From Patescibacteria group bacterium (GTDB lineage Bacteria > Patescibacteriota > Minisyncoccia > Portnoybacterales > UBA2143): DNA of 64,000 nucleotides. The notes under the pieces were generated by a model. The model was given only the letters and a program-made list of their open reading frames with translations. It had not been told where the DNA came from and made no database searches. The position numbers and the translations under genes are program-made. Each line of letters starts with the position of its first letter. Within the stretch, counting starts at the first letter, position 1. Of the stretch, positions 18,497-64,000 are shown piece by piece. The stretch is taken from assembly GCA_018830295.1 (NCBI GenBank), contig JAHJSM010000003.1:2512-66511 (forward strand). Direction: 5' to 3'.

Positions 18497-18529
18497 GGGG
18501 ACAGTCCCTCGCCGCGAGGGACTGTCCCC
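18497..18529. repeat. GC hairpin element (GGGGACAGTCCC type), intergenic
   Basis: ggggacagtccctcgccgcgagggactgtcccc is a perfect 15-bp stem with loop CCG, followed by gtcttag. Confidence 0.85.
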
Positions 18530-18536
18530 GTCTTAG

Positions 18537-18971
18537 TTAGATCTCCTTTAGCTTCCCCTCTTTAATCAACTCTAACTTATCTAATGTATCGTGAAATTCA
18601 TCAAGGACAAAAGCGTTATCCAACTCCTTCGCCACTCCAACAGCAAAATCAGGCCCCTCTTCAAGAGCCAAATTCCGAAGCGCCTCAATCTGTTCCTGAA
18701 CGCCCAATTTGCTAATCTCTTCAACTTTCTTGCCACGCTTCGCCTTGTCCTCCTTCGCCGAGGCTTTGGCGGACAAGTCATCCGCGGGCGGCGCTGGTTT
18801 TACCTCTTCAATAACTTCCTGCTTTACTTCTTGCTTTACTTCTTGCTTTACTTCCTGTTCAACTTTCTCAACCTCAACTTCCCGAGGGGACAGTCCCTCG
18901 GGACGAGGGACTGTCCCCGTCTCAACCGGCTCCGTCTCAACCTCCCCAATTGACTCTTTATATTTGTCCAT
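18537..18971 (-). CDS. acidic repeat protein (hypothetical)
   Basis: Contains (QEVK)n repeats and an in-frame hairpin-element insertion (GTVPRPEGLSP). Confidence 0.4.
   Translation of the reverse strand: MDKYKESIGEVETEPVETGTVPRPEGLSPREVEVEKVEQEVKQEVKQEVKQEVIEEVKPAPPADDLSAKASAKEDKAKRGKKVEEISKLGVQEQIEALRNLALEEGPDFAVGVAKELDNAFVLDEFHDTLDKLELIKEGKLKEI
18826..18866. repeat. 12-nt tandem repeat (ctttacttcttg)x3.5
   Basis: Read directly from the sequence; it encodes the QEVKQEVKQEVK run. Confidence 0.7.
18886..18918. repeat. GC hairpin element inside CDS 18537-18971 (in frame)
   Basis: ggggacagtccctcgggacgagggactgtcccc. Confidence 0.85.
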
Positions 18972-18982
18972 AATTTTACAAA

Positions 18983-19013
18983 GGGGGCTGCCCCCGCAGC
19001 GGGGGCAGCCCCC
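18983..19013. repeat. GC hairpin element (GGGGGCTGCCCCC type), intergenic, terminator-like
   Basis: gggggctgcccccgcagcgggggcagccccc lies immediately 3' of the stop of gene 19017-19358. Confidence 0.85.
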
Positions 19014-19016
19014 GTC

Positions 19017-19325: not shown

Positions 19326-19356
19326 GGGGGCAGCCCTCGCCGCGAGGGCTGCCCCC
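19326..19356. repeat. GC hairpin element, intergenic
   Basis: gggggcagccctcgccgcgagggctgccccc. Confidence 0.85.
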
Positions 19357-19359
19357 ATT

Positions 19360-21438
19360 TTAGTTTATCGTTCTTAAAAACCGACTTACTGACATTTGTT
19401 TTATATTCGCGCTTGGATTAAACCCGCGAATAAATTCAGCTAATTTAATTTGTCTATTAAACTCAATCGCGCCTAATTTTCCATCTGAAGGCAGCCCAAT
19501 TGCTTTCGCGCCTCCTGGCTGGTTAAATATCTCCCATGCTTCTTTGCTTGAAGGAATTTTTTCAAGTAATTCGCTCACTTTAACGCTCTTAATCGCTTCG
19601 TATTCGGCTTTACTAAAGCCGAACGCCTTAATATGCGCCATTTCATTTTCTAAAAACGGGTCAACTCCTTCCTCTGGTAATTCTGGTTGCGCTTCTAAAT
19701 ATGTCTTAAATCTCTGATCATCTAAATTTATCTCAACTCCTTTATTAGTCAAAATCTCATCTATCTTCCCTGAAGTCAGTTCCTCGCCCGGATGCGCCGC
19801 CGTCCAGTCGCCCAATATTTTATCGTTATTTGTAATATTTTCCAAAGCCGCTTGCTTTAAGGCGCTTGCATCCCCAAATATTTCATCCATCCCCGCTTTA
19901 TCCTCAAAAATGCTTGAAAAATCAATTTTCTGCCCCACTTTAATTTTATCAATATCCTCCAATCCAAACTTACCCGGATCAGCCGCTATTTTACCCTTAA
20001 TCGCGTCAATCAAATATGTTTTCCTCGCCCCATCCAGCCCCGCGAATTTCTCTCCATAATTTTTTGCCAACTGCTCCTCCGCCATTTTCCAAACCGAATC
20101 CCCTTTCCCCGCCACTTCCACGAAACCGCCGCCCGTTTCCATCGGCGCGCTTTCAGGAACAACCTTCGCTTCGGGGACTGTCCCCTCTGCGGGGACAGTC
20201 CCCTGATTCTCCACCGTTGGCGCCGCTTCCGCCCCAAGACCCACCTTCTCCTTCGCCCAATCCGCCCACTCATGAGGAATAACATTTCCCAACGCCTTAG
20301 CCGTCCACCCCGAAGCGATCAAAGCGCCCATTGACCCGGCCAGCGCGAAGCGCCGATATTTCTCCCATTTCTTCCCGCCTTCCAATTCAAGCAATTTTTC
20401 GTCTAATTTTTTATCCCCATTCTTTATGCTCTCCATCAACTTGTCCGCGAATTCAGCCGTCACTTCCTTCCCCGCTTTTTTCTCTTGGCTTCTCTTAATC
20501 AATCCTTCAAGACCAACCGCCGCCGCTGAACCGCCCAAAACTCTCTGAAACCACCTGCCCGCCACAACTCCCGTCACCATTGCCGCGCCCGCCGCTCCGC
20601 CAACCGCGCCCGCCGCCACGCCTCCCGCTAGCAAACCAGCCGAAAGCATTAGTTTGTATTTCAAAGGCATCTTCCGATACTTCTCAACTACTTTTTTAGA
20701 AATATTCAAAACTTTTTCAAACCTTGACGCCCCGCCTCTTAATTCCAAATCCAATTCCGTTTTTTTGTCATACAATTTATTCGCCTCCGCCGCGATTGTT
20801 TCTATAATAATATCTTTTTCGGATCCGGAATCCAGTATCTCCGCTCTCCGCGCCTTTAACGCTTCAAAATACCTCCCCTTCGCCTCCGCGTATTCCTTCC
20901 CCGCGTTCCCGCCATCTTTTTCAAAATCTTCTTTCGTCTTTTTTTCTTTAGAAAACTTTTTCTTCGCTCTAATATATTTCTCCGCCATCAAATCCACTTT
21001 CGCAAACTCTCCCCGCGCCTCCTCTAAAATCTCTGTCGCTGTCTTTTCTTTCTCTATTTTCGCTTCTTTTTCTTTGTCAGCAACCAGCTCTTTCTCCATC
21101 TCTTCTATCTCGTCTTTGTTTTCATCTTCAAATGTCTTATCAATTATTTTTTGATTCTCTTCGCTAATAGAGGACAGTCCCTCGCCGCGAGGGCTGCCCT
21201 CGTCTTTGTTTACTTTTTTTAATTTTTTTAATTTTCTCGCTTCAACTTTCTTCACTTTTTTCGTCTTGTCCTCCAAACTGCCCGCTATATTTTTCTTAAC
21301 CAGCGCCGGCTGGTCTTCCCATTTCCTTACCACCTTCGCCACCTCCGATGTATCCGAGCGCTCAAAAATCTCCGCCCCAAAAGCATGATTTACTAATTCT
21401 TCCGCATCCTTCTCATATTTTTTATCTTTATCGTCCAT
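19360..21438 (-). CDS. large hypothetical protein with K/E-rich coiled-coil N-terminus and Gly/Ala-rich TM segment
   Basis: A 692-aa ORF with two in-frame hairpin insertions; no recognisable domain. Confidence 0.45.
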   Translation of the reverse strand: MDDKDKKYEKDAEELVNHAFGAEIFERSDTSEVAKVVRKWEDQPALVKKNIAGSLEDKTKKVKKVEARKLKKLKKVNKDEGSPRGEGLSSISEENQKIIDKTFEDENKDEIEEMEKELVADKEKEAKIEKEKTATEILEEARGEFAKVDLMAEKYIRAKKKFSKEKKTKEDFEKDGGNAGKEYAEAKGRYFEALKARRAEILDSGSEKDIIIETIAAEANKLYDKKTELDLELRGGASRFEKVLNISKKVVEKYRKMPLKYKLMLSAGLLAGGVAAGAVGGAAGAAMVTGVVAGRWFQRVLGGSAAAVGLEGLIKRSQEKKAGKEVTAEFADKLMESIKNGDKKLDEKLLELEGGKKWEKYRRFALAGSMGALIASGWTAKALGNVIPHEWADWAKEKVGLGAEAAPTVENQGTVPAEGTVPEAKVVPESAPMETGGGFVEVAGKGDSVWKMAEEQLAKNYGEKFAGLDGARKTYLIDAIKGKIAADPGKFGLEDIDKIKVGQKIDFSSIFEDKAGMDEIFGDASALKQAALENITNNDKILGDWTAAHPGEELTSGKIDEILTNKGVEINLDDQRFKTYLEAQPELPEEGVDPFLENEMAHIKAFGFSKAEYEAIKSVKVSELLEKIPSSKEAWEIFNQPGGAKAIGLPSDGKLGAIEFNRQIKLAEFIRGFNPSANIKQMSVSRFLRTIN
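20173..20203. repeat. GC hairpin element inside CDS 19360-21438
   Basis: ggggactgtcccctctgcggggacagtcccc, translated as GTVPAEGTVP. Confidence 0.85.
21172..21208. repeat. degenerate GC hairpin element inside CDS 19360-21438
   Basis: ggacagtccctcgccgcgagggctgccctcgtc is a mixed or eroded copy. Confidence 0.6.
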
Positions 21439-21455
21439 AAAATTATTATACCATA

Positions 21456-22932: not shown

Positions 22933-23042
22933 CAAGGTCAGACCCTTTTATGGCTTTCTTCTGCGACGAGCGCTTTAGATTTTTCTGATACGCGTGGGGC
23001 GCCCTTTAGGGCTAAAGCGTTCGGAAAAATCTAAACGCGAGT
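22933..23042. repeat. ~120-nt intergenic repeat, family B, copy 1
   Basis: caaggtcagacc...gcgctttagatttttctgatacgcgtggggcgccctttagggctaaagcgttcggaaaaatctaaacgcgag. Nested inverted repeats. It sits between divergent gene starts. Confidence 0.7.
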
Positions 23043-23046
23043 ATTT

Positions 23047-26336: not shown

Positions 26337-27196
26337 TACACCCTTCCCTCTATCCTTAAATCCACATACTCTAAAGCGGCCAATCCCTCTTCCGTTTCGT
26401 TTTTTAAAATAACCTTGAGCGCGTCGATTTGCGAAATAGCCGGAACAGACGGATTAAAATAAATCTGCCAGCCCTGAATAGTCGTTGCTTTCAATTCTTC
26501 ATCCGAAACAAATTCAAAATCGCGCGCGTCGGGAAAGACCTTTTTGGCGGTTAAAATAAAATCAATCACCCTTGGCGGAATAACTTCGTCTCTGATTTTC
26601 GCCGAATTATTTTCGCCATAAATATTAAGAACTAAATTGCCTCCGATAAGAGGCGACTCCCGAAAAATCACGCCCTCCCGATCAATCTTAAAACAATCCC
26701 CAATCTCCCCAGGGGACAGTCCCCCGTCCGCGGGGGCTGACCCCGTTGTAGCTAAATTGTCCTCATCACTAAGGGACAGTCCCTCGTCGCGAGGGACTGT
26801 CCCTGTCTTAGTTATCACACACCAAATCCCGACACTCTCCCTCTCCCCTATTTTAATCTCCAAAACAGAAGGCATTTTTTTCAAAACATTGACCAGCCGA
26901 ATTTCAGGAAACCTTTCCAGAATCCTTTTTTCAATTTCCTCCGTCGGCGCCAAAAAAACGCTTTTTAGCGGAATAAAATAAAAAATCTTTTCTTCTAAAA
27001 CCCTTTTCGCGATTTCTTCTATCTCTGCGGATGAATAATACATCGGCTCCTTGCCATCCGCCGCCTCAACTTTAATTTCACCCACCCAAAAAAAAGGCGA
27101 CCAGACCAAAAAATAAGCCAAGCCGCCTATCAAACAAAAAAACAGTCCCAAAAAAACAAACTTTTTAAGGGACTTTTTTTTCTTTCTTTTAATCAT
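26327..27196 (-). CDS. FtsQ/DivIB-like cell-division protein (POTRA) with hairpin-element insertions
   Basis: An N-terminal TM is followed by a POTRA-like region (IRLVNVLKKMPSVLEIKIGERE). Two hairpin units sit in frame (GTVPRDEGLS...GSAPADGGLSPGE). Confidence 0.55.
   Translation of the reverse strand: MIKRKKKKSLKKFVFLGLFFCLIGGLAYFLVWSPFFWVGEIKVEAADGKEPMYYSSAEIEEIAKRVLEEKIFYFIPLKSVFLAPTEEIEKRILERFPEIRLVNVLKKMPSVLEIKIGERESVGIWCVITKTGTVPRDEGLSLSDEDNLATTGSAPADGGLSPGEIGDCFKIDREGVIFRESPLIGGNLVLNIYGENNSAKIRDEVIPPRVIDFILTAKKVFPDARDFEFVSDEELKATTIQGWQIYFNPSVPAISQIDALKVILKNETEEGLAALEYVDLRIEGRVYYK
26712..26803. repeat. two GC hairpin units inside ftsQ-like CDS
   Basis: ggggacagtcccccgtccgcgggggctgacccc ... 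agggacagtccctcgtcgcgagggactgtccct. Confidence 0.85.
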
Positions 27197-27202
27197 TAAT
27201 TT

Positions 27203-27337
27203 ACAAGGTCAGACCTTTTATTTCTTTCAGAACCTCTGACTTTTTTAGTTTCTTTTTCGCAGCAAGCACTTTAGATTTTTTTGATACGCGTGGGGCGCCC
27301 TTTAGGGCTAAAGCGTTCAAAAAAATCTAAATGCGAG
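27203..27337. repeat. family B intergenic repeat, copy 2
   Basis: It shares the same ~120-nt element as 22933-23042. Its end provides the last codons and the TAG stop of serS. Confidence 0.7.
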
Positions 27338-29891: not shown

Positions 29892-29922
29892 GGGGGCAGC
29901 CCCCGCAACGGGGGCTGCCCCC
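29892..29922. repeat. GC hairpin element between greA stop and lysS start
   Basis: gggggcagcccccgcaacgggggctgccccc. Confidence 0.85.
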
Positions 29923-32719: not shown

Positions 32720-32741
32720 CTAATGCTCCATGGGGGCTGCC

Positions 32742-32772
32742 CCCGCAACGGGGGCAGCCCCCATCTTACTTA
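32742..32772. repeat. GC hairpin element between mreC stop and mreD start
   Basis: gggggctgcccccgcaacgggggcagccccc. Confidence 0.85.
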
Positions 32773-33567: not shown

Positions 33568-33644
33568 GGGGGCTGCCCCCGCAACGGGAGCAGCCCCCAT
33601 CTTAATCCCAAGGGGACTGTCCTTCGCCGCGAGGGACAGTCCCC
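33568..33644. repeat. two GC hairpin units, intergenic (one of each type)
   Basis: gggggctgcccccgcaacgggagcagccccc ... ggggactgtccttcgccgcgagggacagtcccc. Confidence 0.85.
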
Positions 33645-34759: not shown

Positions 34760-34892
34760 GGGGACAGTCCCCGCCGCGAGGACTGTCCCCTTCTTAACAA
34801 AGGGACATTCCAAGGGGGGCAGTCCCCCGTCTCGGGGGCTGCCCCCGTCTTAATCTCAAGGGGACTGTCCCTCGCGGCGAGGGACAGTCCCC
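34760..34892. repeat. cluster of three GC hairpin units in divergent promoter region
   Basis: ggggacagtccccgccgcgaggactgtcccc / ggggggcagtcccccgtctcgggggctgccccc / ggggactgtccctcgcggcgagggacagtcccc. Confidence 0.85.
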
Positions 34893-36663: not shown

Positions 36664-36694
36664 GGGGGCTGCCCCCGCAGCGGGGGCAGCCCCC
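36664..36694. repeat. GC hairpin element downstream of def-fmt, upstream of rpsF
   Basis: gggggctgcccccgcagcgggggcagccccc. Confidence 0.85.
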
Positions 36695-37972: not shown

Positions 37973-37989
37973 AGAAATAAGCGTTTTAT

Positions 37990-38142
37990 ATTTTTTTGAT
38001 ACGCGTGGGGCGCCCTTTAGGGCTAAAGCGTTCAGAAAAATCTAAACGCGAACTTTCCGAGCAAGCATTCTGAAATTTCTGATGCGTGTAGGGTTCCCGT
38101 TCCGACGGGATAAAACGCTCAGAAATTTCAGAATGCGAGCGA
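37990..38142. repeat. family B intergenic repeat, copy 3, plus a diverged tandem unit
   Basis: Unit 1 is nearly identical to copies 1 and 2. Unit 2 (about 38058-38142) keeps the same architecture with different arms (cattctgaaatttctgatgcgtg...cgctcagaaatttcagaatgcgag). It lies between the convergent ends of rpsR and recA. Confidence 0.7.
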
Positions 38143-41417: not shown

Positions 41418-41448
41418 GGGGGCTGCCCCCGCAACGGGGGCAGCCCCC
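41418..41448. repeat. GC hairpin element between rpoC stop and ftsK start
   Basis: gggggctgcccccgcaacgggggcagccccc. Confidence 0.85.
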
Positions 41449-45537: not shown

Positions 45538-48500
45538 CTACTTCCCTGTCAGTTCCATCCCCAGTCCCAGCGCCTTTAACTCGCTTAACAAAACATTAAA
45601 GGAAGCCGGAATGTTCGGCGCTTGGATTTCTCTTCCGCGAATAATCGCGTCGTAAACATTCGTCCGCCCGCTCACATCGTCCGATTTAATCGTTAAAATT
45701 TCCTGCAAAGTGTGCGCCGCGCCGTATCCTTCCAACGCCCAAACCTCCATTTCCCCAAATCTCTGCCCGCCAAATTGCGCTTTTCCGCCCAAGGGCTGTT
45801 GAGTAATCAAGGAATAAGGCCCAACTGAACGCATGTGCATCTTGTCTTCAACCAAATGCAATAATTTCAAAATATATGTATATCCGACCGTAATCGGCTG
45901 TTCAAACGGCTCGCCATTTCGCCCATCGTATAAAATAACTTTTCCGCTTTCGGGCAAGCCAGCTTTCTTTAATTCGCTTTTAATTTCGCTTTCCTTAAAT
46001 CCAGCCAAAGCCGGAGTAATCGCTTGATACCCCAATTCCTTCGCCGCCCAACCAAGATGTGTTTCCAAAATTTGACCGATGTTCATCCGCGAAGCAACGC
46101 CCAAAGGATTAAGAATAATTTCCACCGGCGTTCCGTCCGCCAAATGAGGCATATCTTCTTCTGGAAGAATTTTAGAAATGACGCCCTTGTTTCCGTGCCG
46201 GCCAGCAAGTTTGTCGCCCACCGAAATTTTGCGCAATTGCGCCACTTCCACTTGGATGCTCCGAATTACTCCGCTCTGCAATTTGTCGCCATTATCGCGC
46301 GAGAAAATTTTAATTCCGACGACCCGGCCTCTTTTTCCATGCGGCATTCGCAAAGAAGTGTCTTTAACATCGCGCGCTTTCTCTCCAAAAATCGCCTGCA
46401 ATAATCTTTCTTCCGCCGTCAAATCGGTTTCTCCTTTGGGAGAAATTTTGCCAACTAAAATATCATTAGGTCCGACTTCCGCTCCAACGCGGACAATCCC
46501 CTCTTCGTCTAAATCCTTGAGTCGGTCTTCGCCCACATTAGGAATATCAGGCGTGGTCGTTTCTGGCCCTAATTTTGTTTCCCGGACGAAGCAGGTAAAA
46601 CTTTCAATATGAATTGAGGTAAATCGGTCGTCTTTGACTAATTTCTCAGAAAGAATAATCGCGTCTTCAAAATTGTACCCTCGCCATGACATAAAAGCGA
46701 CCAAAAGATTTTGCCCCAGAGCCAGCCGTCCCTGGTCGGTGGAGGCGCCATCCGCTAAAATATCATCTTTCTTAACCCTCTGTCCTTTTTGAACAAGTGG
46801 ATGCTGACAAACGCAAGTATATTGGTTTGTTCGCGTAAAAGAACGCAAATAATATGTTTTTAATTTTCCTTTTTTGGGTCTAACCGCGATATGCTCCGCG
46901 TCAACCTCTTCAATCGTTCCGTCCTCCTCGGCAATAATCAAACTACCCGAATCCCTCGCCGCTCGGTCTTCCATGCCCGTCCCAACCAAAGGCGCCTGCG
47001 GTTTAACGCAAGAAACCGCCTGTCTCTGCATATTTGAGCCCATCAAAGCGCGGTTGCTATCGTCGTGTTCCAAAAACGGAATCAAAGAAGTAGCAACACT
47101 AATTGGCTGCTGCCGCGAAACATCAATAAAATCAACCTTGGAGCGGTCAATGACGCTCGGCTGTCCCTTAACCCGCGCTTCCACGATTTTGTCAGCCAGC
47201 CGCCCGTCCGCCCCAATAGCAACCCCCTTATGCGCGATATTGTATTTCTCCTCTTCGGCGGCATTAAGACAAACAACCTCTTTTGTCGGTTTCCCTTTAA
47301 CTACTCTGCGATAAGGCGTTTCAAGAAAACCATATTCATTCAAACGCGCTGTCACAGTTAAATGCCCAATCAAACCAATGTTCGGACCTTCCGAAGTATG
47401 AATTGGACAAATTCTTCCGTAGTGACTTGAGTGCACATCTCTCACTTCAAACCCCGCTCTTTCCCTCGTCAAACCACCCGGACCCATCGCCGATAACCGT
47501 CGTTTATGCTCCAGTTCTGCCAAAGGATTGTGCTGGTCCATAAATTGCGACAATTGCGAAGAGGAAAAAAATTCTTTCACTGAAGCAATAAAAGGCCGAA
47601 CATTAATCAACTGCCCCGGCATCATTTCATAAGGGTCAAGCGTGGACATTCGGTCGCGGATAATTCTTTCTGTCCGCGCCATTCCGACTCGCAATTTATT
47701 CTGCAATAATTCCCCCATGGACTTGACGCGGCGATTGCCCAAATGGTCAATATCGTCCGGCGTCGCGCCTGGCGTATTATTTAAAACAATAATTTCCCGA
47801 ATAATATTCTTAATATCCTCCAAACAAAGCACCCTCTTTTTTTGGGGACAGTCCCCCGTCTTCGGGGGCTGCCCCCAATTCCCCACCCTCTGCCCTAACT
47901 TCCATCTTCCCACTTCTCCCAAATCGTATCTTTCAAAAGAAAGCATCGCTTCAATAAATCCACGCGCGTTATCTTCCGTTGCTAAATCGCCCGGACGAAT
48001 TCTTTTGTAAACCGAAACAAACGACTCGCCCGCCGTTTTAGCTGAGTCCTTTTCAATTGTCGCTTCAATGTAATCCGTTTCGCCATTGTTAATATCGGAG
48101 AAAAATCCCTTGATCTCATCGTTAGATAAATTGTCATTTCCTTCAAGCGCGGCAAAAACCCGCATTAAAGCGGTCACTGAAACTTTTCTCTTTCTATCAA
48201 TTTTTACGGCAATCGCGCCGTCCGAATCCGTTTCAAATTCCAACCAAGCGCCGCGGCTTGGAATAACTTTTGCTCCAAATCTTTGCTGGCCTCTTAAAAA
48301 TTGAGAAACAAAAAACGCCCCAGAAGATCTAATTAGTTGCGAAATCACGACCCTCTCCACGGCGTTCACGATAAATGTCCCGCGGTCAGTCATCACGGGA
48401 AAATCGCCAAAGAAAATTTCTTGCTCTTTGACTTCTTTTGTTTTTCTGTTAATCAACTTGACTCGACAATACAAAGACGCCTCGTAAGAAACATTGCGAG

Positions 48501-48973: not shown

Positions 48974-49049
48974 GGGAGCAGCCCCCGCAACGAGGGCTGC
49001 CCCCTTTCCCTCTCTCGGGGACAGTCCCCCGTCTTCGGGGGCTGCCCCC
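48974..49049. repeat. cluster of ~3 GC hairpin units upstream of rpoB
   Basis: gggagcagcccccgcaacgagggctgccccc ... ggggacagtcccccgtcttcgggggctgccccc. Confidence 0.8.
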
Positions 49050-51551: not shown

Positions 51552-51774
51552 GGGGACAGTCCCCTCTTGGGGACTGTCCCCGGATTCTCTTTTTTTATTA
51601 TACCAAAAAATTGAAAAAATAAAAGCCCGAATTATCCCCATCAGGTTTTTCCGATGGGAGCAGCCCCCGCCGCGAGGGCTGCCCCCTTTCCCTTTCTCGG
51701 GGGCAGCCCCCCGTCCTCGGGGGCTGCCCCCATTTCGCCACGAGGGGACAGTCCCCTCTGGGGGACTGTCCCCG
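51552..51774. repeat. large intergenic array of >=5 GC hairpin units
   Basis: ggggacagtcccctcttggggactgtcccc ... gggagcagcccccgccgcgagggctgccccc ... gggggcagccccccgtcctcgggggctgccccc ... ggggacagtcccctctgggggactgtcccc. Confidence 0.85.
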
Positions 51775-52134: not shown

Positions 52135-52144
52135 ATTACACACC

Positions 52145-52232
52145 GGGGGCAGCCCCCGCAACGAGGGCTGCCCCCTTTCTCCCATCCCCGGGGACAGTCC
52201 CCCGTCTTCGGGGGCTGCCCCCATCTTAGTTA
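52145..52232. repeat. three GC hairpin units between comM stop and yraN start
   Basis: gggggcagcccccgcaacgagggctgccccc ... ggggacagtcccccgtcttcgggggctgccccc. Confidence 0.85.
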
Positions 52233-53743: not shown

Positions 53744-53765
53744 AAATTTAAATTAGGGGGCTGCC

Positions 53766-53821
53766 CCCGCAACGGGGGCAGCCCCCATCCCCTCTCTTGG
53801 GGACTGTCCCCGTCTTAGCTA
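53766..53821. repeat. two GC hairpin units between dprA stop and comM start
   Basis: gggggctgcccccgcaacgggggcagccccc ... ggggactgtcccc. Confidence 0.85.
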
Positions 53822-54689
53822 TTTAGTATTATACTTCCCTCCTCTTAATTTAATTAGCCCCCTAATTTCCATCAACGATAACTTAACACTTAATTCCGAA
53901 ACCGACATTTCCAAACCGCGCGATAATTCATCTATCCCCATCGGCTCCTGCTCTAATTTTCTTAAAATCCTGGCTTCGGGGGCTGCCCCCGCAACGGGGG
54001 CAGCCCCCATCCCCTCTCTTGGGGACAGTCCCTCGTCTTCGGGGGCTGCCCCCATCCCCCTTAAAACATCCTCCGCGCTCAAAACCATTTCCGCCCCATT
54101 CTTAATTAATAAATTAGTCCCCTTTGACAACGAACCCGTTATCGGCCCTGGCGTGGCAAAAACCTTTCGGCCAAACTTCTTCGCGCAATTAGCAGTAATC
54201 AAACAACCGCTCTTTTCTCCCGCCTCAATCACCAAAAGCGCCTTTGATAAACCAGCCACAATTCTGTTTCTTTGAGGATAAGTCCAAAGCGCCGGCTTCA
54301 TCTCCCCTTCATATTCAGAAATTATTAGCCCCCCGCTCTCCAAAATACTCTTATAAAGTTTTTTTTTGATGAGCCGGATGAATTAAATCAATCCCGCATG
54401 GCATCACCGCAATCGTTCGCCCGCCCGCTTTAATCGCCGCTTCATGAGCCGCCGCATCGCCTCCATACATAAATCCAGAAACAATCGTAATTCCAGCCAT
54501 CGCGATTTCGCCAACTATCTGCTCCATTATCCGCTCGCCATAAGAAGTCAATCTCCTGCTCCCAATAACCGCCAAACAATTTTCAAAAATACTCAAGTCA
54601 AAATCGCCTTTATAATACAATTGCTTAGGCGCGCCCTTAGTTTGTTTTAAAAGTTCAGGATACTCTTCATCTTCCTTGTAAATTATCAT
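53819..54689 (-). pseudogene. dprA: DNA processing protein DprA interrupted by frameshift at A9/T9 homopolymer (or sequencing error/transcriptional slippage site)
   Basis: Two adjacent ORFs, 54351-54689 and 53819-54343, together cover DprA: the Rossmann part, then GGLIISEYEGE...RNRIVAGLS, then a winged helix. Removing one A/T from the run at about 54352-54362 joins them as ...HQKK-LYKSILESGG.... The downstream part also carries an in-frame hairpin cluster. Confidence 0.7.
53976..54055. repeat. three GC hairpin units inside dprA C-terminal region (in frame)
   Basis: gggggctgcccccgcaacgggggcagccccc ... ggggacagtccctcgtcttcgggggctgccccc, translated as MGAAPEDEGLSPREGMGAAPVAGAAPE. Confidence 0.85.
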
Positions 54690-56015: not shown

Positions 56016-59000
56016 TTAGTATCCCACCGCATCCGCAGAAGGCGTTTCTAGCTCTTCAACCACCGGTTCCTCGGCAACAGGTTCCTCAGTCACCGGCTCA
56101 GGAGAGGACACCTCCACCACCGGCTCCGGCTCGTCCGCTTCAGGGACTTCTTCGGGGGCTGCCCCCGCAACGGGGGCAGCCCCCTCTTCATCAACCACCG
56201 GGGGCAGTCCCTCGTCCGCGGGGGCTGCTCCCTCTTCATCAACCACAGGTTCCTCAACCACCGGTTCAACCACCGGGGGCAGTCCCTCGTCCGCGGGGGC
56301 TGCTCCCTCTTCATCAACCACCGGCTCCTCCGCAACCGCCCCGCATTCCCCGGCGACTGTTTGCGCCGCCCCACTCGCAACAAAGAAACAATACGGTAGT
56401 CCCGTCACTCTATCATACAATGTAATCCCTGCCTGCTCTTCAACTCCTCCTCCAACCTTCAATTGCTCTGTTTCAATATTTTTCGCCTTAATTTTATCAA
56501 CAACTAAAACTCCTTCCTCGTCCAAAACCAATCCCAATTCCGCCAAATCCATCCTTAATTCCTCCAGCGAATCCACTTCAACCAAATCCCCATTTTCATC
56601 CCGCTCCACTGTCAACAACGCCTCCAATTCCTCTAATCTATTATTCAACGCTTTAACCCCCGCTAAAGCAAACGAAGTATAATCATACAAACTAACCGAC
56701 TCCCCATCAGAAATCATCCCAATAGGGGGCAGTCCCCCGTCGCGGGGGCTGCTCCCGTCCGCAACTTCCCCTCCCCCATACCTCCCCATTTCCATCCCCG
56801 CAATCAGCCCTAAAATCTCAGCGTAATCCGCCTCCTCTAAATATGTAACTTCCATTTCATCCGCGCGCGGCAAATAGACATCCCATCCGTCAGCAATCGC
56901 GCTCCCCGCGCCCCGCCCAATCGTCAAGATATTCGTCGGCGACGAAGTAGCAATCCCAAACCGCCCCATCGTATCCAAAACCAACCCCACAGGGGGCAGA
57001 GGGGGCAGTCCCCCGTCGCGGGGGCTGCTCCCGTCCCATGCCTCCACCAACCTAATCAACCCCGCCTCCTCCAACTTCAGTGTTAATCCGTCCGTCAACT
57101 GCTCCATTCCCTCCATCCGCGCGTCAATCTCCTCAAACTGCTCTGGAATAACATCTCTAATATCCAACGCCAAATCGGAAATTTCATCCATCGCGAGCGT
57201 TAATTTAGCGTCAATCAAAAGCAACTGCGGAGAAACAATTTCGTTAATATCATCCTCTAAGTTCAAATTATCAATCGCTCCAGCAATCAAGATATTAACT
57301 TCATCTTCAATCTCCATCGCCGCGACCCGCTCCGTCACTTTATCTTCCACCTCTTCCACTGTGAGCGACTTATTCCGCCGCGAAATCAAAACATTAATCA
57401 CCCCTTCGCCTTCTTTAAGTCCCTCAAGCGCTACCCCAACCGTCGGGTCCCCCGCCCCTGCCCGCATAATATACCCTGGAACCGAAGCCGAAGTAAGCGA
57501 ATCCCCCGGGCGAATAGGTCCGCCTTCCGCAGAGACCTTCGCTGGCACCTGCCCAAGCATTCCAATAATAGCGTAATGCGGATTGTCTTCCCGCCTTTCA
57601 TCAGAAGGAGCGTTCCCCAAAAATGCCGGATTAGTTGAAACAATACCCATGATATTTCCATCAGCCGCCCGTTCGCACCGCTTGACCGCGTTTTCCCGTT
57701 CAATATCAACGCAAACCGCCTCGCCTGATTTCAAATCGGTATCAATGGAATAATAGTATTCAGCGTAGTCAGCCGAACCGGAAGTCCAAGCGTTGGTCGC
57801 GTTGACATAAGCCACATTAACGCCGTCGCTATTATGGTCAACTGTCAGCCGATAATCTGGCGTCGTGTCCCCGATGCCGACGTTGCCGCTATTTCTTTTG
57901 ACTGCAATTCCAAGAATTTCCGACCCAGCATCATAACCGACGATTTTAAGCACATAATTTGCTTCATCAAAAAGTATTTTAGCACCGTATGTGGAAAGGC
58001 CACGTTCCATAAAAGAGATTCCTTTATTGGTTCCCTCGGGGATATTCAAAGATAACAATTCATTTGGACTCGTCGTCCCGATGCCGACGTTGCCCGAGGC
58101 GTTTATACGCATTCGTTCCTTAATACTGGAACTATCATTTGTGTGGAAAGATAAATAACCAGTAGCAGAACCGTCAGTCGCAGATTCTTTTCTGCCCGCA
58201 ATTGCTCCAAAAATCTGTTTGCTCCCCGCACTGTTGTAAAAACCTCCCATACCGATTGCACCGCCTTTGTCTATGGCAAAAGAATCGCTGGTCATTGCCG
58301 CAATGTGAACCTGTGCATCTCCATTAAGTCCATCCGCCAAATTCTGATTGGCTTTGACAACATCTAAGGTTGTCCCCGGACTCACTGTCCCGATGCCGAT
58401 ATTACCCGCCGAAGTGACAACGAAGGAGGGCGTTGCTCCAACTGTGAAATCCCCACCAATATACATAGCTCCAGTAGTAGTTGCATTGCCATCAACCGTT
58501 AAATTACTTCCAAAGTGACCTGCTCCTTGAGTAAATAGACCCGTAGTAGAAGAAGCATATCCTGTTGTAACTAAATTCCCCCCTGAAGTAACCGTCAATA
58601 GATTTGCGCCGGTGGATGAGGCAATAGTAAATATATCTGAACTACCAGCTGTGCCTTGAATAGATAGTTTAGATAGTGGCGTTGTTGTTCCTATGCCGAC
58701 GTTGCCGCCGACAACTGATAACGTCTCAGTAAATGCACCACTATTTCCATAGCCAATTCCTACTCTACTCGCACTGTTTACGGAAAAAATTTGCAACAGA
58801 TTATTTTGAATACCAAACCCGTAACCAGTTCCCGCGGCATTGTCATATAATGCAATCTTATTTCCCACTGCTGTACCTAATGACAATGGAAAACTCGGCC
58901 CCGTCGTCCCGATGCCGACGTTGCCGCTAAATACTGCCTTACCTCCTATACTTAAAGTATCAGTGGTAGTTGCCGAACCCATTGTCAATCCAAAGGCGGT

Positions 59001-62000: not shown

Positions 62001-64000
62001 ACTTTCCGACTGCGTTCCGGCAATTACCGAATTATTTTCCGTATCATTAACCATATCATCGTCATCGGAAGCGTCAGACACAGGCAAGAGGGATATTGAT
62101 TTGTTCAGCGCAAGATATGGATGATTCCCCGTCGTTCTAATTATCCTGCTGTCTTCTGTTTCAATCTCGTAAATGGTCTTAACCCCCATATCCATCAACT
62201 GCTTAATTTTGGCAGGCGTTAATTCGCCTGTTTTTTCATTAAGGGATAAGACATAGTCGCCCGGCTGGACTTCGTCTATACGGGTGTATTTGGGGGCAGC
62301 CCTCGCAACGGGGGCTGCCCCCGAATTCACTATCGGCAAGAGCGTATCCCCCGTCACGCATTGCCCGTCCACGGTTAAGTCCTTCTTAATGTATTGGCTT
62401 CCAGTTGTCGTCGCGTTTCCTTCTATGTTGAGATAACCGAGAACAGAGAGATTGTCGGAGATGGTTGTCGTGCTGTTGTTTGCGGCGAGGTCTATGTTTA
62501 AGTCGCCGTTTGTGTCTATGGTGAATGAGGCGTATTTGGATGTTGAGACATCATAAGAGAGCCGCAATTGTTCGGTCGTTGAGGAGGCGTGAATGCGGCC
62601 GACTACAGCCAGAGCTGAATCTGGCGTGGTTGTCCCGATGCCGACATTGCCCGATGTTCCTACGCCGCTGGACGGGCCCACATAGAATGTTGGGATATTA
62701 CTATTAAATCCAATGGCAAAAGAATTGTCTTTATTGTGAACTAATGGAACGGCACCACTTACTCCAGAACCTAACGCAAAAGTCGAATCCGCGTCGCTAC
62801 TAATACTAATGTATTTTCCTATACCAAAAGAAAAATTTCCGGCATTAGTAACTCCATACCCTAATGCTATAGCGTCTTGTCCGCTTAAAGTAAGATCTCT
62901 GCCAAATCCCTTTGAGTAACTTCCGCTGGCGATTATATCACTTCCAATTGCGATCTTGCCAGAAGTGGAGAAGAGAATATCCCCTGTTCCCGCAACAGTT
63001 AGGCCACTCTTAAGGGTAGTAACCCCGTCGGCGGAGAATGTTCCGCCAATATGCCCATTCCCCTGCGTAAAGAATCCTGCTGTCGTAGAGGCGTAGCCAG
63101 TAATATTAAGATTGCCTGTTTGGGTGATTGCTCCGTTGAAGATAGTGTTGTGGGCGATAATGCCGTTGGCGACGAAGTTGTGAGTTCCTTCTACCTCTAT
63201 GTCATAGACCTGTTTTCTGCCCGTTGGCTCAATGGAAACAATTTTTTCCCAAATCGCTAAATTACCCTCGCCAGCCGCCGCGATTTCCATACCCGGTTGA
63301 AGATAGATAACTTTTGTCCACTTTTGACTATTGACAGAAATTTGAGGTTTAGTATTATTAAAGTATATGCGATTAAATAAATCCCAATTTGAAGCGATTT
63401 CCAGTTTTTTTGTTGATTTAGCAAAGATATTGTTCGCCTCAACTGTGGTTGGGTTTTTCATTCCAGGTTCCTCCGGAATTGTTAATATGCCCGTATTCAC
63501 CATCGGTTCTGTATCCACTTTGGGGTTGTTCACATTGAGCGTTATTTTATTAAAGTCCGAATAATTATGAATTATCTTATTGTCGCTTATATTATTACTT
63601 GTATCATGGCTACCATTATTTTCATTTGGGCCATGGAACATAGAAAATAAATTATGAATAATATTATTCTCTACATTATCGCCGGCATTGTCATTTTGAC
63701 TATGTTCGGTGTCGCTTTCTTCTATAATTCCAAATCTAACTAAGTATGGGTGGTTGCCCGTCGTTTCAATCTGTTTACCCGATTCCGTGGTTAAACGAAA
63801 TGTCGTTTTGACCCCCATATCCATCAACTGCTTAATCTTGGCAGGCGTTAATTCGCCTGTTTTTTCATTAAGGGATAAGACATAGTCGCCCGGCTGGACT
63901 TCATCTATGCGGGTGTATTTGGGGACAGCCCTCGCAACGGGGGCTGCCCCCGAATTCACTATCGGCAAGAGCGTATCCCCCGTCACGCATTGCCCGTCCA
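56016..64000 (-). CDS. giant tail-fibre-like repeat surface protein (>2656 aa, N-terminus beyond window) containing two intein-like modules and many hairpin-element insertions
   Basis: The reading frame is open for 7.97 kb. It holds many GNVGIGTT(S/T)P beta-helix-like repeats and a conserved C-terminal-proximal segment ADYAEYY...GEAV...IMGIVSTNPAFLGN. The acidic tail contains tandem duplications. Confidence 0.7.
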   Translation of the reverse strand, partial: DGQCVTGDTLLPIVNSGAAPVARAVPKYTRIDEVQPGDYVLSLNEKTGELTPAKIKQLMDMGVKTTFRLTTESGKQIETTGNHPYLVRFGIIEESDTEHSQNDNAGDNVENNIIHNLFSMFHGPNENNGSHDTSNNISDNKIIHNYSDFNKITLNVNNPKVDTEPMVNTGILTIPEEPGMKNPTTVEANNIFAKSTKKLEIASNWDLFNRIYFNNTKPQISVNSQKWTKVIYLQPGMEIAAAGEGNLAIWEKIVSIEPTGRKQVYDIEVEGTHNFVANGIIAHNTIFNGAITQTGNLNITGYASTTAGFFTQGNGHIGGTFSADGVTTLKSGLTVAGTGDILFSTSGKIAIGSDIIASGSYSKGFGRDLTLSGQDAIALGYGVTNAGNFSFGIGKYISISSDADSTFALGSGVSGAVPLVHNKDNSFAIGFNSNIPTFYVGPSSGVGTSGNVGIGTTTPDSALAVVGRIHASSTTEQLRLSYDVSTSKYASFTIDTNGDLNIDLAANNSTTTISDNLSVLGYLNIEGNATTTGSQYIKKDLTVDGQCVTGDTLLPIVNSGAAPVARAAPKYTRIDEVQPGDYVLSLNEKTGELTPAKIKQLMDMGVKTIYEIETEDSRIIRTTGNHPYLALNKSISLLPVSDASDDDDMVNDTENNSVIAGTQSESGRAVFPSEFQNASVLQRMIEAANSQDVVENSALDIAGHSFDFFGGFAGEIIAEHNYIFNDFLNASPSTKLSFLASLKSLFNFSATLGLEYETKSKISSNSSLDNIFGGAKTPRKLLLSMIVNEDDNLDIQENNNSDADTLSSSRWTRVAELSEGDTIAVANLAELGSSSDVEESFGSVKFVKIARISILPPEQVYDIEVEGTHNFVANGIIAHNTAFNGAITQTGNLTTTGYLSVGVDDGYFNFTAGDLNASGELRVGEGATFAGNVGIGTTSPAYKLDVYGNARVDGDLTTKRLFTSPNTTQVLTASTTAIVSTNSLLNISSDADYVMIGTPTIASSTQGQILYIQNTGSFTIELQDNSVLSGSSIFHGGTNGVLAPDQIMTLVFMEDVGGWMIQSHPNSPVNVSSASSLILVRNTSGSTISAGTPVYITGYNVGQGRITIDLADADDSAKYPAIGLTTGSISNNTNGTVISSGVLSGINTSAYAVNDALFLSTTPGTLTSTRPTGASDCIQAVARVSRASATGVVQVIGAGRCNDIPNTFATTVDYAQFNNATSTLFSATTSWLGNLLSTGNTLSATNDSGLHLYDNASNGITVLDGGNVGIGTTSPLTKLSVQGTAGQPVMNIASSTGASLLYVSESGNVGIGTTAPSYKFHVIGNEYVAGYASTTAGLFTQSNIHAGGTFSADGVSTFNNNLTVAGASDFQGNIADSLGDLTIDDNLLVSGNATTTGHFAAFGGNSDEWNSAFGWGDHASGGYYVTANDSYVLNTTDTMSGGLSMNSATTTDTFYISSLATAAGSFLAVDATGLVIATTTPSGGMVYPAAGIALSTGSAWDTSITNNSGNWNTAYGWGNHSIAGYFPLTTWYATTTHALISSLPSLVTVGTLTAGNADAIITLGTSVDISSETNLTVGATGIELALDDIALTTGYIIPLSASTTNWNTFYDTPSNRITAGTNLAWTGNTLDATDTNTTYLGGTNLTLVGTTFNVDDAFLVNTAADTTAFGLTMGSATTTDTLSIGGKAVFSGNVGIGTTGPSFPLSLGTAVGNKIALYDNAAGTGYGFGIQNNLLQIFSVNSASRVGIGYGNSGAFTETLSVVGGNVGIGTTTPLSKLSIQGTAGSSDIFTIASSTGANLLTVTSGGNLVTTGYASSTTGLFTQGAGHFGSNLTVDGNATTTGAMYIGGDFTVGATPSFVVTSAGNIGIGTVSPGTTLDVVKANQNLADGLNGDAQVHIAAMTSDSFAIDKGGAIGMGGFYNSAGSKQIFGAIAGRKESATDGSATGYLSFHTNDSSSIKERMRINASGNVGIGTTSPNELLSLNIPEGTNKGISFMERGLSTYGAKILFDEANYVLKIVGYDAGSEILGIAVKRNSGNVGIGDTTPDYRLTVDHNSDGVNVAYVNATNAWTSGSADYAEYYYSIDTDLKSGEAVCVDIERENAVKRCERAADGNIMGIVSTNPAFLGNAPSDERREDNPHYAIIGMLGQVPAKVSAEGGPIRPGDSLTSASVPGYIMRAGAGDPTVGVALEGLKEGEGVINVLISRRNKSLTVEEVEDKVTERVAAMEIEDEVNILIAGAIDNLNLEDDINEIVSPQLLLIDAKLTLAMDEISDLALDIRDVIPEQFEEIDARMEGMEQLTDGLTLKLEEAGLIRLVEAWDGSSPRDGGLPPLPPVGLVLDTMGRFGIATSSPTNILTIGRGAGSAIADGWDVYLPRADEMEVTYLEEADYAEILGLIAGMEMGRYGGGEVADGSSPRDGGLPPIGMISDGESVSLYDYTSFALAGVKALNNRLEELEALLTVERDENGDLVEVDSLEELRMDLAELGLVLDEEGVLVVDKIKAKNIETEQLKVGGGVEEQAGITLYDRVTGLPYCFFVASGAAQTVAGECGAVAEEPVVDEEGAAPADEGLPPVVEPVVEEPVVDEEGAAPADEGLPPVVDEEGAAPVAGAAPEEVPEADEPEPVVEVSSPEPVTEEPVAEEPVVEELETPSADAVGY
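56154..56190. repeat. GC hairpin unit in giant ORF tail
   Basis: gggggctgcccccgcaacgggggcagccccc. Confidence 0.85.
56196..56322. repeat. tandem duplication (~75 nt x2) in C-terminal tail of giant ORF embedding hairpin elements
   Basis: caccgggggcagtccctcgtccgcgggggctgctccctcttcatcaaccac occurs twice and encodes EEGAAPADEGLPPVV repeats. Confidence 0.6.
56725..56757. repeat. GC hairpin unit in giant ORF
   Basis: gggggcagtcccccgtcgcgggggctgctccc. Confidence 0.8.
56992..57035. repeat. GC hairpin unit in giant ORF
   Basis: gggggcagagggggcagtcccccgtcgcgggggctgctccc. Confidence 0.8.
61438..61836 (+). CDS. Phd/YefM-like antitoxin candidate (start uncertain)
   Basis: The C-terminal part, FTIIDNNNLRGVLAPPKMLSKELLEDILDLVSYSRPKVAEKLNKDFKEAKKE, parallels YefM ([48 protein letters not shown]). 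The stop lies 2 nt before the toxin ATG. It lies antisense inside intein-like module 2. Confidence 0.45.
   Translation: MLILAILTNLTEPKLSSTSDELPSSAKFATAIVSPSLNSATRVHRELDRVSASLLLFSCMSKLSSSFTIIDNNNLRGVLAPPKMLSKELLEDILDLVSYSRPKVAEKLNKDFKEAKKESLVDGEALRKSLKI
61839..62099 (+). CDS. type II toxin, RelE/ParE family
   Basis: The 86-aa sequence KLRGKYSAPTFRLRSGNYRIIFRIINHIIVIGSVRHRQEGY matches the RelE/ParE consensus (kL.g....y.lRvGdYRiiY.i.d....v..v.hRkdvY). It is translationally coupled to the upstream ORF. Confidence 0.75.
   Translation: MFRYNFTRKAAKEIKGMPRNIQRRIFNDILTICRLNHPLQDRSVLKLRGKYSAPTFRLRSGNYRIIFRIINHIIVIGSVRHRQEGY
62292..62322. repeat. GC hairpin unit inside intein-like module 2
   Basis: gggggcagccctcgcaacgggggctgccccc. 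Confidence 0.85.
63147..63989 (-). other. intein-like module 1 of giant ORF
   Basis: Cys at 63987-63989 (CVTGDTLLPIV...) ... QVYDIEVEGTHNFVANGIIAHN, then Thr. The core is low-complexity with no recognisable endonuclease motif. It contains hairpin element NSGAAPVARAVP. Confidence 0.7.
63921..63951. repeat. GC hairpin unit inside intein-like module 1
   Basis: ggggacagccctcgcaacgggggctgccccc. Confidence 0.85.

Follow-up and report, generated by a model that had tools for sequence, protein, structure and literature searches.

A strain-polymorphic family of GC-rich hairpins in a patescibacterial genome, probably a REP- and RPE-like mobile element

Short GC-rich palindromes that multiply in genomes are best known from the repetitive extragenic palindromic (REP) sequences of Proteobacteria (REP/BIME/REPIN), which are extragenic by definition, carry GTAG 5' of the stem and are mobilised by RAYT HUH transposases. 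The GC clusters of yeast mitochondria are likewise short GC-rich palindromic mobile units, polymorphic between strains and occasionally in frame (var1). In Neisseria and Pasteurellaceae, DNA uptake sequences and uptake signal sequences (DUS/USS) originate through substitutions, and all strains of a species have them. Here we describe a family of 37 GC-rich hairpins in a 64,000-nucleotide (nt) stretch from a Patescibacteria group bacterium (contig JAHJSM010000003.1; “the window” below means this whole stretch), many of which are missing from near-identical relatives.

Two further kinds of repeat invite comparison. The Rickettsia palindromic elements (RPEs) are ~100–150 bp long and encode a conserved peptide in one frame (Ogata et al. 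2000, summarised in PMC10969869). Bacterial MITEs (small transposable elements with inverted repeats) and terminator-like repeats (Correia/NEMIS, ERIC, QMITE2, SPRITE) are usually 50–500 bp in size (PMC10969869).

A hairpin family within genes and at gene junctions

The GGGGRCWGYCCCC arm has 45 exact occurrences in the window vs 0.00 expected (100 dinucleotide shuffles of the window), and a search allowing one mismatch recovers 73 arms. These pair as 36 hairpins and one degenerate copy (26772–26804), i.e., 37 hairpins, and leave two solo arms (16023 and 53799); the family spans 16.0–64.0 kb of the window at ~1.6 arms/kb (Table 1). An initial annotation of this DNA, made from the sequence alone, had described such a family both between genes and in frame within them (rpoB, dprA, the ftsQ-like gene, the Wzy-like gene, def/fmt, hypothetical proteins and a giant open reading frame, ORF). 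The family and both of its settings are real: 20 hairpins are intergenic, 16 lie in frame in ORFs and one (19326) overlaps a called start codon, while the range first given, 18497–63951, leaves out the solo arm at 16023.

In all 37 hairpins the central W is complementary between arms (CAG with CTG), giving a 13-bp stem and a loop of 3–7 nt. Stems are perfect in 17/37 and otherwise keep 10–12 Watson–Crick pairs, folding energies range from −18 to −34 kcal/mol, and mean GC is 81% vs ~43% in the surrounding DNA. Each 13-nt arm is moreover itself palindromic, in all three families compared. Read in gene orientation (minus strand), the units comprise type A (GGGGGCWGCCCCC-GTTGC/GCTGC/GCGGC-GGGGGCWGCCCCC, 31 nt), type B (GGGGGCAGCCCCC-GAAGACG-GGGGACTGTCCCC, 33 nt), type C (GGGGACWGTCCCT-CGCGGCG-AGGGACWGTCCCC, 33 nt) and a short form (GGGGACAGTCCCC-4 nt-GGGGACTGTCCCC, 30 nt). 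Their lengths (17 × 31, 15 × 33, 3 × 32 and 2 × 30 nt) contradict the proposal that the unit is a multiple of three, as only 17/37 are divisible and 20/37 are not. As for freedom from stop codons, 36/37 contain no stop triplet in either direction, yet base composition alone would leave ~24/37 without one, and the high GC (81%) accounts for most of the effect. In-frame units are read in at least four frames and on both strands, e.g., [32 protein letters not shown] and GTVPRHEGLSP.

Units also occur in larger assemblies. A composite of type B, a 12–14-nt purine-rich linker and type A is present in five copies alignable over ~78 nt, and for the comM–yraN example one nested hairpin is the predicted fold (−71.6 kcal/mol, z = −7.75). 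Such a long-hairpin fold is automatic because all arms are mutually complementary, and the composite as a mobile unit is not proven thereby. Arrays of 3–6 units had been reported at three places, of which 34760–34892 holds three and 51552–51773 four, whereas 48974–49049 holds two.

On the 5' side (gene orientation), positions −6 to −1 read T-A-A-G-A-Y with high information, the 3' flank has none, and some copies have 16 nt of 5' flank in common. The TAA of the flank is often the stop codon in use, e.g., in comM. The (T)AAGAY flank is nonetheless borne by the element, because it is present at 34815 and 34860, where no gene ends; and since flanks are closer to consensus after insertion than the empty sites were, at least GAY, and probably AAGAY, travels with it. 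The gtcttag previously read as terminator-like resolves accordingly into TTA, usually the stop codon of a minus-strand gene, and the element-borne (T)AAGAY. Intergenic hairpins begin 3–11 nt past the upstream stop and end 6–16 nt ahead of the next start (gene orientation); the exceptions are arrays, including one in a divergent promoter region. A hairpin-borne N-terminus suggested for YraN (ORF 51784–52266) was rejected as an artefact of ORF calling, as YraN starts at 52134, like that of relatives (116–118 aa). For the DUF5663 gene a start at 19358 is possible, but it would be buried in a −32 kcal/mol stem.

Pfam content, including DUF5663, and close homologues named Patescibacteria or Candidatus Portnoybacteria place the host in the Candidate Phyla Radiation (CPR). 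Window GC is ~43%, GC skew of the + strand is strongly negative throughout and nearly all genes are on the minus strand. Positions 1–16000 hold no hairpins despite ~14 gene junctions, and 13 of ~33 junctions are occupied at 16–57 kb; possible reasons are that the elements hop locally or that this segment came by recombination from a strain poor in elements.

Presence and absence among relatives

Protein searches with ComM and Def-Fmt supplied a graded series of relatives, whose contigs, all syntenic with the window, were compared with it. L212 (with which L213 agrees in overlap) is 96.2–99.5% identical in nucleotide sequence over window 26.0–39.7 kb and has 2/11 of the hairpins there; L214 (96.3–99.7%; 34.0–44.7 kb) has 2/6; and L204 and L205 (~94% in comM and rpoB; 46.1–54.3 kb) have 2/13. 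Across these comparisons (94–99.7% identity), no relative has a counterpart of 19/25 comparable hairpins, so that the check for insertion-site polymorphism advised in the initial annotation is strongly positive. Copies absent from relatives include those in rpoB, def-fmt, the ftsQ-like gene and the Wzy gene. None of L212, L214, L204 and L205 has a private copy, and empty alleles are concordant between independent assemblies (L204 = L205, L212 = L213). Hairpins are gained or lost between strains at ~1 per 25 base substitutions, and their density differs ~5-fold between near-identical strains (96–99.7% identity). Because of this presence/absence variation at 94–99.7% identity, the family is mobile and recently expanded; many insertions in this strain's lineage are very recent.

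Inserts measure 30–168 nt. Intergenic ones lie at or right after the stop triplet and split formerly overlapping or adjacent stop/start junctions (Table 1). At 4/4 informative intergenic sites, a TAA, TAG or TAAGAT-like hexamer stands at both insert ends, with asymmetric and variable spacing to the stem, which fits either a short target duplication or an IS200/IS605-like process, in which the element enters 3' of a target containing TAR and itself ends in a similar motif. Within genes, net inserts are divisible by three (+30, +30 and +105 nt); in-gene inserts persist solely where the protein has a variable loop or linker and the net length is a multiple of three, and selection alone would yield such lengths.

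At the def-fmt site, the relative is already fused (LLGK-KIKIIF) and the window protein has 10 residues more. An element-caused def-fmt fusion was considered and rejected, as a relative at 95–98% identity is fused without a hairpin. The Def-Fmt fusion itself (35344–36654, 436 aa) predates the hairpin and also occurs in more distant CPR; relatives at 70–75% identity have a separate fmt.

Hairpins mediate deletions by recombination between composites. Between L204 226–331 and window 53742–54069, a deletion between two B-linker-A composites has cost L204 the DprA winged-helix domain: its DprA ends right after the hairpin composite, and the type A hairpin at 53756 is one deletion end point. The type A loop of L204 is also flipped (GCAAC vs GTTGC).

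A relative at 78% identity from the same sample (L218–L220, GC 36%) carries a sister family, GAGGTCWGACCTY, in units of the form GAGGTCAGACCTT-5 nt-AAGGTCTGACCTC, with the same 13+5+13 layout, CWG centre and palindromic arms, and with GAAGAT or AAAGAT flanks. Its copies lie at the dprA/comM, comM/yraN and TPR/rpoB junctions, and composites of 94–120 nt are in frame in dprA. Across the families, 98.2% of stem cells are paired vs 50–65% in slid controls, and 6/13 stem pairs have changes on both sides. Conservation of an AAGAY handle alongside a covarying stem is what one would expect if sequence and structure were recognised together. In 97 other loci of relatives, no lineage apart from these two has a hairpin family with repeated arms. 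A metagenome scan with RpoB, in which the best relative was 69% identical, found arms in 0/80 loci, and the hairpins had no match among viral contigs.

Further afield, a distant Patescibacteria metagenome-assembled genome (MAG), L041 (GC 32%), has the same type B unit. A pattern scan of a genome collection returned, among the matches listed, mostly genomes of high GC, in which the pairs were often direct and not inverted; of those listed, L041 and L039 alone resemble the window units. Pairs of GGGGACWGTCCCC occur in MAGs of many phyla (L001–L120, e.g., L005 4309–4863, L024 and L071), many of them direct, not inverted. In Omnitrophota such pairs are flanked by A-runs and T-runs, like bidirectional terminators. 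The ORFs adjoining GGGGACWGTCCCC pairs are ordinary housekeeping genes without transposase enrichment.

A probable selfish element and rival explanations

We consider it more likely than not that the copies are a non-autonomous selfish DNA element of REP/REPIN- and RPE-like type. Its minimal unit is a one-sided (T)AAGAY flank plus a GC-rich hairpin with a 13-bp stem, and a common larger unit is the ~78-nt B-linker-A composite. Such an element would be moved in trans by an enzyme that reads both the hairpin, folded in single-stranded DNA, and the AAGAY beside it, much as in REP/RAYT systems and with the HUH transposases of insertion sequences (IS) of the IS200/IS605 group. Integration would be 3' of TAA/TAG-like sites, hence the association with stop codons and the TAA/TAG/TAAGAT-like motif at the far end. 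Stems may be kept perfect by compensatory change, possibly through template-switch “quasipalindrome correction.” Transcript effects of a stable hairpin 3 nt past a stop and 6–16 nt ahead of a start would be a side effect rather than the cause; such effects on mRNA stability and translational coupling are plausible. It is unlikely that every site needs its hairpin as a terminator or for another RNA function.

If so, selfish DNA can expand in a very recent burst within a CPR genome of ~0.75 Mb. The elements split translationally coupled genes and add 10–35 residues to RpoB, FtsQ-like, Def-Fmt, DprA and Wzy-like proteins. The near-isogenic filled and empty alleles, together with the covarying sister family, offer a natural experiment on how REP-like DNA is recognised and moved and on how proteins accommodate added loops.

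The family is not a new category of system; it is compact and REP/REPIN-like, RPE-like inside genes, and housed in a CPR bacterium. Its likeness to REPs and REPINs extends to many copies of a GC-rich near-palindrome of 20–40 nt (here 37 of 30–33 nt in 46 kb), short-linker clusters, placement just after genes and inside operons, presence/absence variation among strains, and lineage-specific sequence on the same architecture. Two further resemblances are less clear-cut: a conserved flank confined to the 5' side, which is GTAG in classical REPs but (T)AAGAY here and AAGAT in the sister family, and pairs foldable into a longer hairpin as in REPINs, predicted here for one composite of five and automatic with mutually complementary arms. 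It differs in that 16/37 copies are translated in frame, whereas REPs are extragenic; that clustered units share one orientation instead of alternating; that each arm is palindromic; that the flank carries or abuts a stop codon; that no RAYT gene was found among the ORFs of the window or of 8 kb of L041; and that the host is a CPR bacterium with a contig of ~0.75 Mb. Yeast mitochondrial GC clusters resemble it as GC-rich palindromic units in lower-GC DNA, polymorphic and with in-frame copies, yet they are organellar and eukaryotic and have another sequence, so the analogy is functional and implies no shared ancestry.

The comparison with RPEs, already drawn in the initial annotation, is apt as an analogy because the insertion sites proved polymorphic. 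RPEs too are palindromic selfish repeats of a reduced genome that lie in frame in unrelated, even essential genes as well as between genes, adding peptide segments that are tolerated (PMC10969869). In-frame insertion here is likewise at tolerated positions (the RpoB loop, the Def-Fmt and DprA linkers, the Wzy loop and the FtsQ-like protein). However, units here are 30–33 nt (composites ~78 nt) and read in several frames on both strands, whereas RPEs measure ~100–150 bp (PMC10969869); and insertion here is demonstrably recent, polymorphic at 94–99.7% identity. With MITEs the family has in common a non-autonomous, many-copy nature, a preference for the 3' side of genes (QMITE2), a terminator-like shape (SPRITE) and occasional in-frame copies (PMC10969869), and possibly a short target duplication, i.e., the TAA or TAG on both insert sides; the arms could also act as inverted repeats. 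The unit here is, however, far below 50–500 bp, its ends are asymmetric with a one-sided flank, and no parent IS with matching inverted repeats is known for it. A literature search found no paper with these sequences, and no MITE-like repeats were reported for Patescibacteria in the literature searched.

Several observations weigh against transposition of a selfish element. Pfam and NCBIfam searches of the window ORFs, the ORFs of 8 kb of L041 and 138 ORFs adjoining similar hairpins of other phyla yielded neither HUH nor DDE transposases, nor any other transposase or enriched family; within the window there is no IS, only a large serine recombinase (1747–3258) with no hairpins nearby. Insert boundaries are non-uniform and carry 0–72 nt of extra, non-repeated sequence, and at rpoB and def-fmt a simple insertion does not cover all the differences between alleles. 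The ftsQ-like site resembles a deletion in the relative, since L212 keeps a hairpin fragment there, and therefore some absences are losses. As nearly all genes are on one strand, the orientations of replication and of genes cannot be separated; the def-fmt copy, antisense to its host gene yet in the common chromosomal orientation, is a single suggestive case. Finally, three empty alleles already read TAAGAC plus a G-run, or CTAAGGGG.

This last point keeps alive an explanation that needs no dedicated transposase, namely template switching during replication or repair, or gene conversion between copies, seeded by TAAGAC|GGGG microhomology at the left junction, with palindrome slippage producing gains and losses. 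Because the empty alleles of Wzy (TAAGACGGAG), AsnRS (TAAGACAGGGGA) and rpoB (CTAAGGGGCGA) already resemble the left junction, microhomology-guided copying stays a serious rival, although we rate it as rather unlikely. It would accommodate the variable insert lengths and right-hand boundaries, the absence of a transposase from the window and from 8 kb of L041, the recombination between copies in L204 and the loop flips between orthologous copies (GTTGC vs GCAAC). It sits poorly with the comM (TAATATG), mreC (TAATG) and rpoC (TAGATT) empty sites, where G-run microhomology is absent; and a burst in one strain, together with a sister family that keeps only AAGAY while its stems covary, fits an enzyme reading sequence plus structure better.

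The selfish element might instead owe its mobility to an undescribed process, either an enzyme new to REP-like DNA or a transposase-free hairpin, that reads AAGAY plus the dyad-of-dyads and integrates at stop codons, with the GAGGTCWGACCTY sister family of a related CPR lineage and the GGGGACWGTCCCC hairpin pairs of Omnitrophota, Planctomycetota and further uncultivated phyla as products of the same widespread mechanism. This broader proposal strikes us as doubtful.

That the hairpins are selected RNA elements (U-tract-less terminators or attenuators, 3'-end stabilisers against exonucleases, or processing or translation-uncoupling signals) kept uniform by concerted evolution appears quite improbable. 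The stems are very stable and tightly placed (3–8 nt past the stop and 6–16 nt ahead of the next start), these junctions hold a different hairpin in a related lineage, and the copy at 36664, found in every close relative, stands where an operon might plausibly end. Of a terminator, the GC-rich stem is there, but no U-tract follows the hairpin in the sense direction, and T-rich tails and positive calls of a terminator scan are confined to the antisense (+) strand. Most copies are inside operons or ORFs—16 of them within ORFs, one antisense to its host gene—and relatives are hairpin-free at these junctions. With 19/25 missing in strains 94–99.7% identical, no terminator is needed, since close relatives have overlapping or 1–8-nt stop/start junctions at the same sites. 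Counts of G·U vs A·C mismatches in the stems show no strand preference that would mark an RNA strand, and Rfam searches of hairpins and composites (gathering and E-value thresholds) gave no meaningful match.

A third proposal treats the 13-bp dyad arms as sites for a dimeric DNA-binding protein, an uptake receptor or a restriction/modification enzyme, enriched by molecular drive like DUS/USS. Arms that are palindromic in all three families, solo arms (16023 and 53799; singles in L206 and L041), the competence genes dprA and comM and an m5C methyltransferase in the window, and the recurrence of GGGGACWGTCCCC pairs in many phyla all speak for it. Like DUS/USS, moreover, the arms have a comparable density per kb (~1.6 arms/kb), form inverted-pair hairpins after genes and occupy tolerated frames inside genes. 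Unlike them, the copies arise as insertions of 30–168 nt, not by point mutation, and differ ~5-fold in density between near-identical strains that would be expected to share specificity; both facts disfavour an uptake signal or a protein site. The central bases, moreover, are complementary in all 37 pairs without exception, although sites acting independently would have no need of this, and there are no copies in 1–16 kb. On balance this proposal is very improbable.

Assembly or chimera artefacts, named beforehand as a way in which the family might prove spurious, can be dismissed: although short-read contigs do break at hairpins, three assemblies from different pipelines—ENA (ERZ27247117 k141_539904, a metagenomic contig of 744,622 bp whose reverse strand the window represents), NCBI (MAG GCA_018820055.1) and Logan—are 100% identical over 17.3–38.6 kb, across 11–15 hairpins, reading frames are intact through 16 copies, and the same units are found in other MAGs (L041, L204, L212 and L214). 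Shorter contigs from other assemblies of the same organism terminate exactly at hairpins, at 36664 (NCBI) and 29919; hairpins therefore fragment short-read CPR assemblies. They might equally be of use as strain markers.

Individual copies and neighbouring features

Table 1. Hairpins and solo arms of the family in the window, with the state of each site in relatives where compared.
Feature	Coordinates	Strand	Remarks
Solo 13-nt arm GGGGGCTGCCCCC	16023..16035		Exact, partnerless; 5' end of type IV secretion system (T4SS)-coupling-like ATPase gene
33-nt hairpin type C (GGGGACAGTCCCT..AGGGACTGTCCCC), intergenic	18497..18529	-	Perfect 13-bp stem, −31.4 kcal/mol; 5' flank CTAAGAC; 7 nt past stop of the gene for the 144-aa hypothetical protein (hyp144), 6 nt ahead of next start
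33-nt hairpin type C, in frame in 144-aa hypothetical protein	18886..18918	-	Within ORF 18537–18971, in a variable region; perfect stem
31-nt hairpin type A (GGGGGCWGCCCCC arms), intergenic	18983..19013	-	3 nt past DUF5663 stop (TAAGAC), 11 nt ahead of hyp144 start; further TAA 5 nt 3' of stem
31-nt hairpin type A, stop of 692-aa hypothetical protein gene (hyp692) / DUF5663 gene	19326..19356	-	Flank CTAAAAT; overlaps called ATG; ATG 19358 at stem foot, second ATG after stem
31-nt hairpin (GGGGACWGTCCCC arms), in frame in 692-aa hypothetical protein	20173..20203		Encodes QGTVPAEGTVPE; site is a hypervariable linker (alignment of 9 homologues); closest homologue 52% identical, hence no allele comparison
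33-nt hairpin type B-like, in frame in FtsQ-like protein	26712..26744	-	Absent from L212; protein 289 aa in window vs 248 aa in L212; copies located after POTRA domain
Degenerate 33-nt hairpin type C, in frame in FtsQ-like protein	26772..26804	-	Remnant in L212, only CTGTCCCTTAG kept; 16-nt 5' flank GTGTGATAACTAAGAC common to copy at 51744–51773
31-nt hairpin type A, AsnRS/AspRS-greA	29892..29922	-	Absent from L212, empty site TAAGACAGGGGA
31-nt hairpin type A, mreC-mreD	32732..32762	-	Absent from L212; insert from TAAGAT to TTAGAT; overlapping stop/start TAATG in L212 split by 47-nt insert in window
31-nt hairpin type A, upstream of mreC	33568..33598	-	Older copy, because also in L212 (8500–8530)
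33-nt hairpin type C	33612..33644	-	7 nt past stop of 77-aa ORF; 45-nt insert missing from L212, TAAGAC on left, TAAGAT on right
31-nt hairpin, array unit 3, divergent promoter region	34760..34790	-	Flank TAAGAA; array 34760–34892 missing entirely from L212, L213 and L214
32-nt hairpin, array unit 2	34815..34846	-	Flank TTAAGAC, no gene ending there
33-nt hairpin, array unit 1	34860..34892	-	Flank AAAGAC; perfect stem
33-nt hairpin type C, in frame in Def-Fmt interdomain linker	35805..35837	-	Host gene on +; encodes GTVPRHEGLSP between Pep_deformylase (aa 14–153) and Formyl_trans_N (aa 171 onward); present in L214, absent from P0122, L212 and L213, all already fused
31-nt hairpin type A	36664..36694		9 nt past fmt stop, ahead of rpsF promoter-like TTGACC; oldest compared, because present in L212, L213 and L214
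31-nt hairpin type A, rpoC-ftsK	41418..41448	-	Absent from L214; insert from TAG to TAGAAT; gap 8 nt in L214 vs 59 nt in window
33-nt hairpin type B (GGGGGCAGCCCCC-GAAGACG-GGGGACTGTCCCC), in frame in rpoB	47844..47876	-	Empty in L204/L205: NQSKGRV vs N[[11 protein letters not shown]]QKKRV in window, net +30 nt
Type A half of B-linker-A composite after Wzy/TPR stop	48974..49004	-	Absent from L204 and L205; between Wzy/TPR stop and TTGACT..TATACT rpoB promoter-like site
Type B half of same composite (48974–49049)	49017..49049	-	Flank AAACTAAGAT, 8 nt past stop
33-nt hairpin type B, in frame in Wzy/TPR membrane protein loop	51060..51092	-	Empty allele TAAGACGGAG (L204, L205), which lack the +35 aa in the loop; extra sequence of insert not repeated elsewhere in window
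30-nt hairpin, unit 4 of yraN-Wzy array	51552..51581	-	Flank AATCC; array missing from L204 and L205
Type A half of composite, yraN-Wzy array unit 3	51656..51686	-	Two non-Watson–Crick positions, G·U on minus strand
Type B' half of composite, yraN-Wzy array unit 2	51699..51731	-	Perfect stem, −33.8 kcal/mol
30-nt hairpin, yraN-Wzy array unit 1	51744..51773	-	10 nt past yraN stop; flank GTGTGATAACTAAGAC
Type A half of comM-yraN composite	52145..52175	-	Absent from L204 and L205; +90 nt, empty AAYTAA|TATG (L204, L205) vs filled TAA-GAT-B-14 nt-A-GGTGTG-TAA-TATG
Type B half of comM-yraN composite	52190..52222	-	Nested fold with type A half
Type A hairpin of dprA-comM composite	53756..53786	-	TAA directly after stem
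Solo arm GGGGACAGTCCCC (half type B unit)	53799..53811	-	After TAAGAC
Type A half of composite, in frame in DprA linker	53978..54008	-	Between DNA_processg_A and DprA_WH; present in L204; composite stands in place of variable linker seen in L206
Type B half of DprA composite	54021..54053	-	Encodes GAAPEDEGLSP
31-nt hairpin, giant ORF C-terminal low-complexity tail, in frame	56154..56184	-	Encodes GAAPVAGAAP
33-nt hairpin, giant ORF, in frame	56200..56232	-	Encodes GAAPADEGLPP; within 75-nt tandem duplication
33-nt hairpin, giant ORF, in frame	56275..56307	-	Duplicate of 56200 copy, same flanks
32-nt hairpin, giant ORF, in frame	56725..56756	-	Encodes GSSPRDGGLPP, different frame of unit
32-nt hairpin, giant ORF, in frame	57001..57032	-	Encodes GSSPRDGGLPP
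31-nt hairpin, Hint module, in frame	62292..62322	-	CVTGDTLLPIVNS[GAAPVARAAP]KYTRIDEV; loop after first Hint strand
31-nt hairpin, paralogous Hint module	63921..63951	-	From module duplication, not separate insertion, because flanks identical to 62292 copy

Two of the in-frame sites can be set against protein structure. The loop of Rpb2 domain 2 that holds the rpoB copy proved hypervariable when 11 relatives were compared, and it can be aligned to solved RpoB chains (best match 4kbj_A). Residues 141–165 of Def-Fmt, modelled once and at weak, low confidence, have a predicted local distance difference test score (pLDDT) <50 and no secondary structure.

Several neighbouring features were noted in passing. 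The giant ORF (56016–63986, running past the window end; >2,656 aa) consists of repeated Hint/intein-like modules with a period of ~1.63 kb, and its C-terminal tail is acidic and Pro/Val/Glu-rich, with 75-nt tandem repeats. Within an A9 tract (CATCAAAAAAAAACTT, window 54343–54351), a frameshift breaks dprA into two ORFs; this could reflect an indel from sequencing, a pseudogene, or slippage at a tract subject to phase variation. Between rpoB and rpoC lies a four-helix-bundle gene (45112–45474; PF05635 “23S rRNA IVS protein,” TIGR02436); in relatives at 78–81% identity rpoB and rpoC are adjacent and PF05635-type genes are located elsewhere. L212 has an extra AAA_14/DUF4143 ATPase gene (2313–3503) between SerRS and AsnRS; movement of this gene between loci was considered and rejected, as it is only 35% identical to the window paralogue (54686–55942).

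At the other end of the window, in DNA of 34% GC (475–3258), a C-5 cytosine DNA methyltransferase adjoins the large serine recombinase, whose ORF overlaps tRNA-Asn; an integrated element is the probable explanation. The window also has a second family of repeats, imperfect palindromes of ~75 nt (…GCGCTTTAGATTTTTTTGATACGCGTGGGGCGCCCTTTAGGGCTAAAGCGTTCAGAAAAATCTAAACGCG…), present in three intergenic copies (22945–23041, 27240–27337 and 37979–38051) that are 87–94% identical and have no Rfam match; AAGGTCAGACCTT palindromes adjoin two of them (22934 and 27205).

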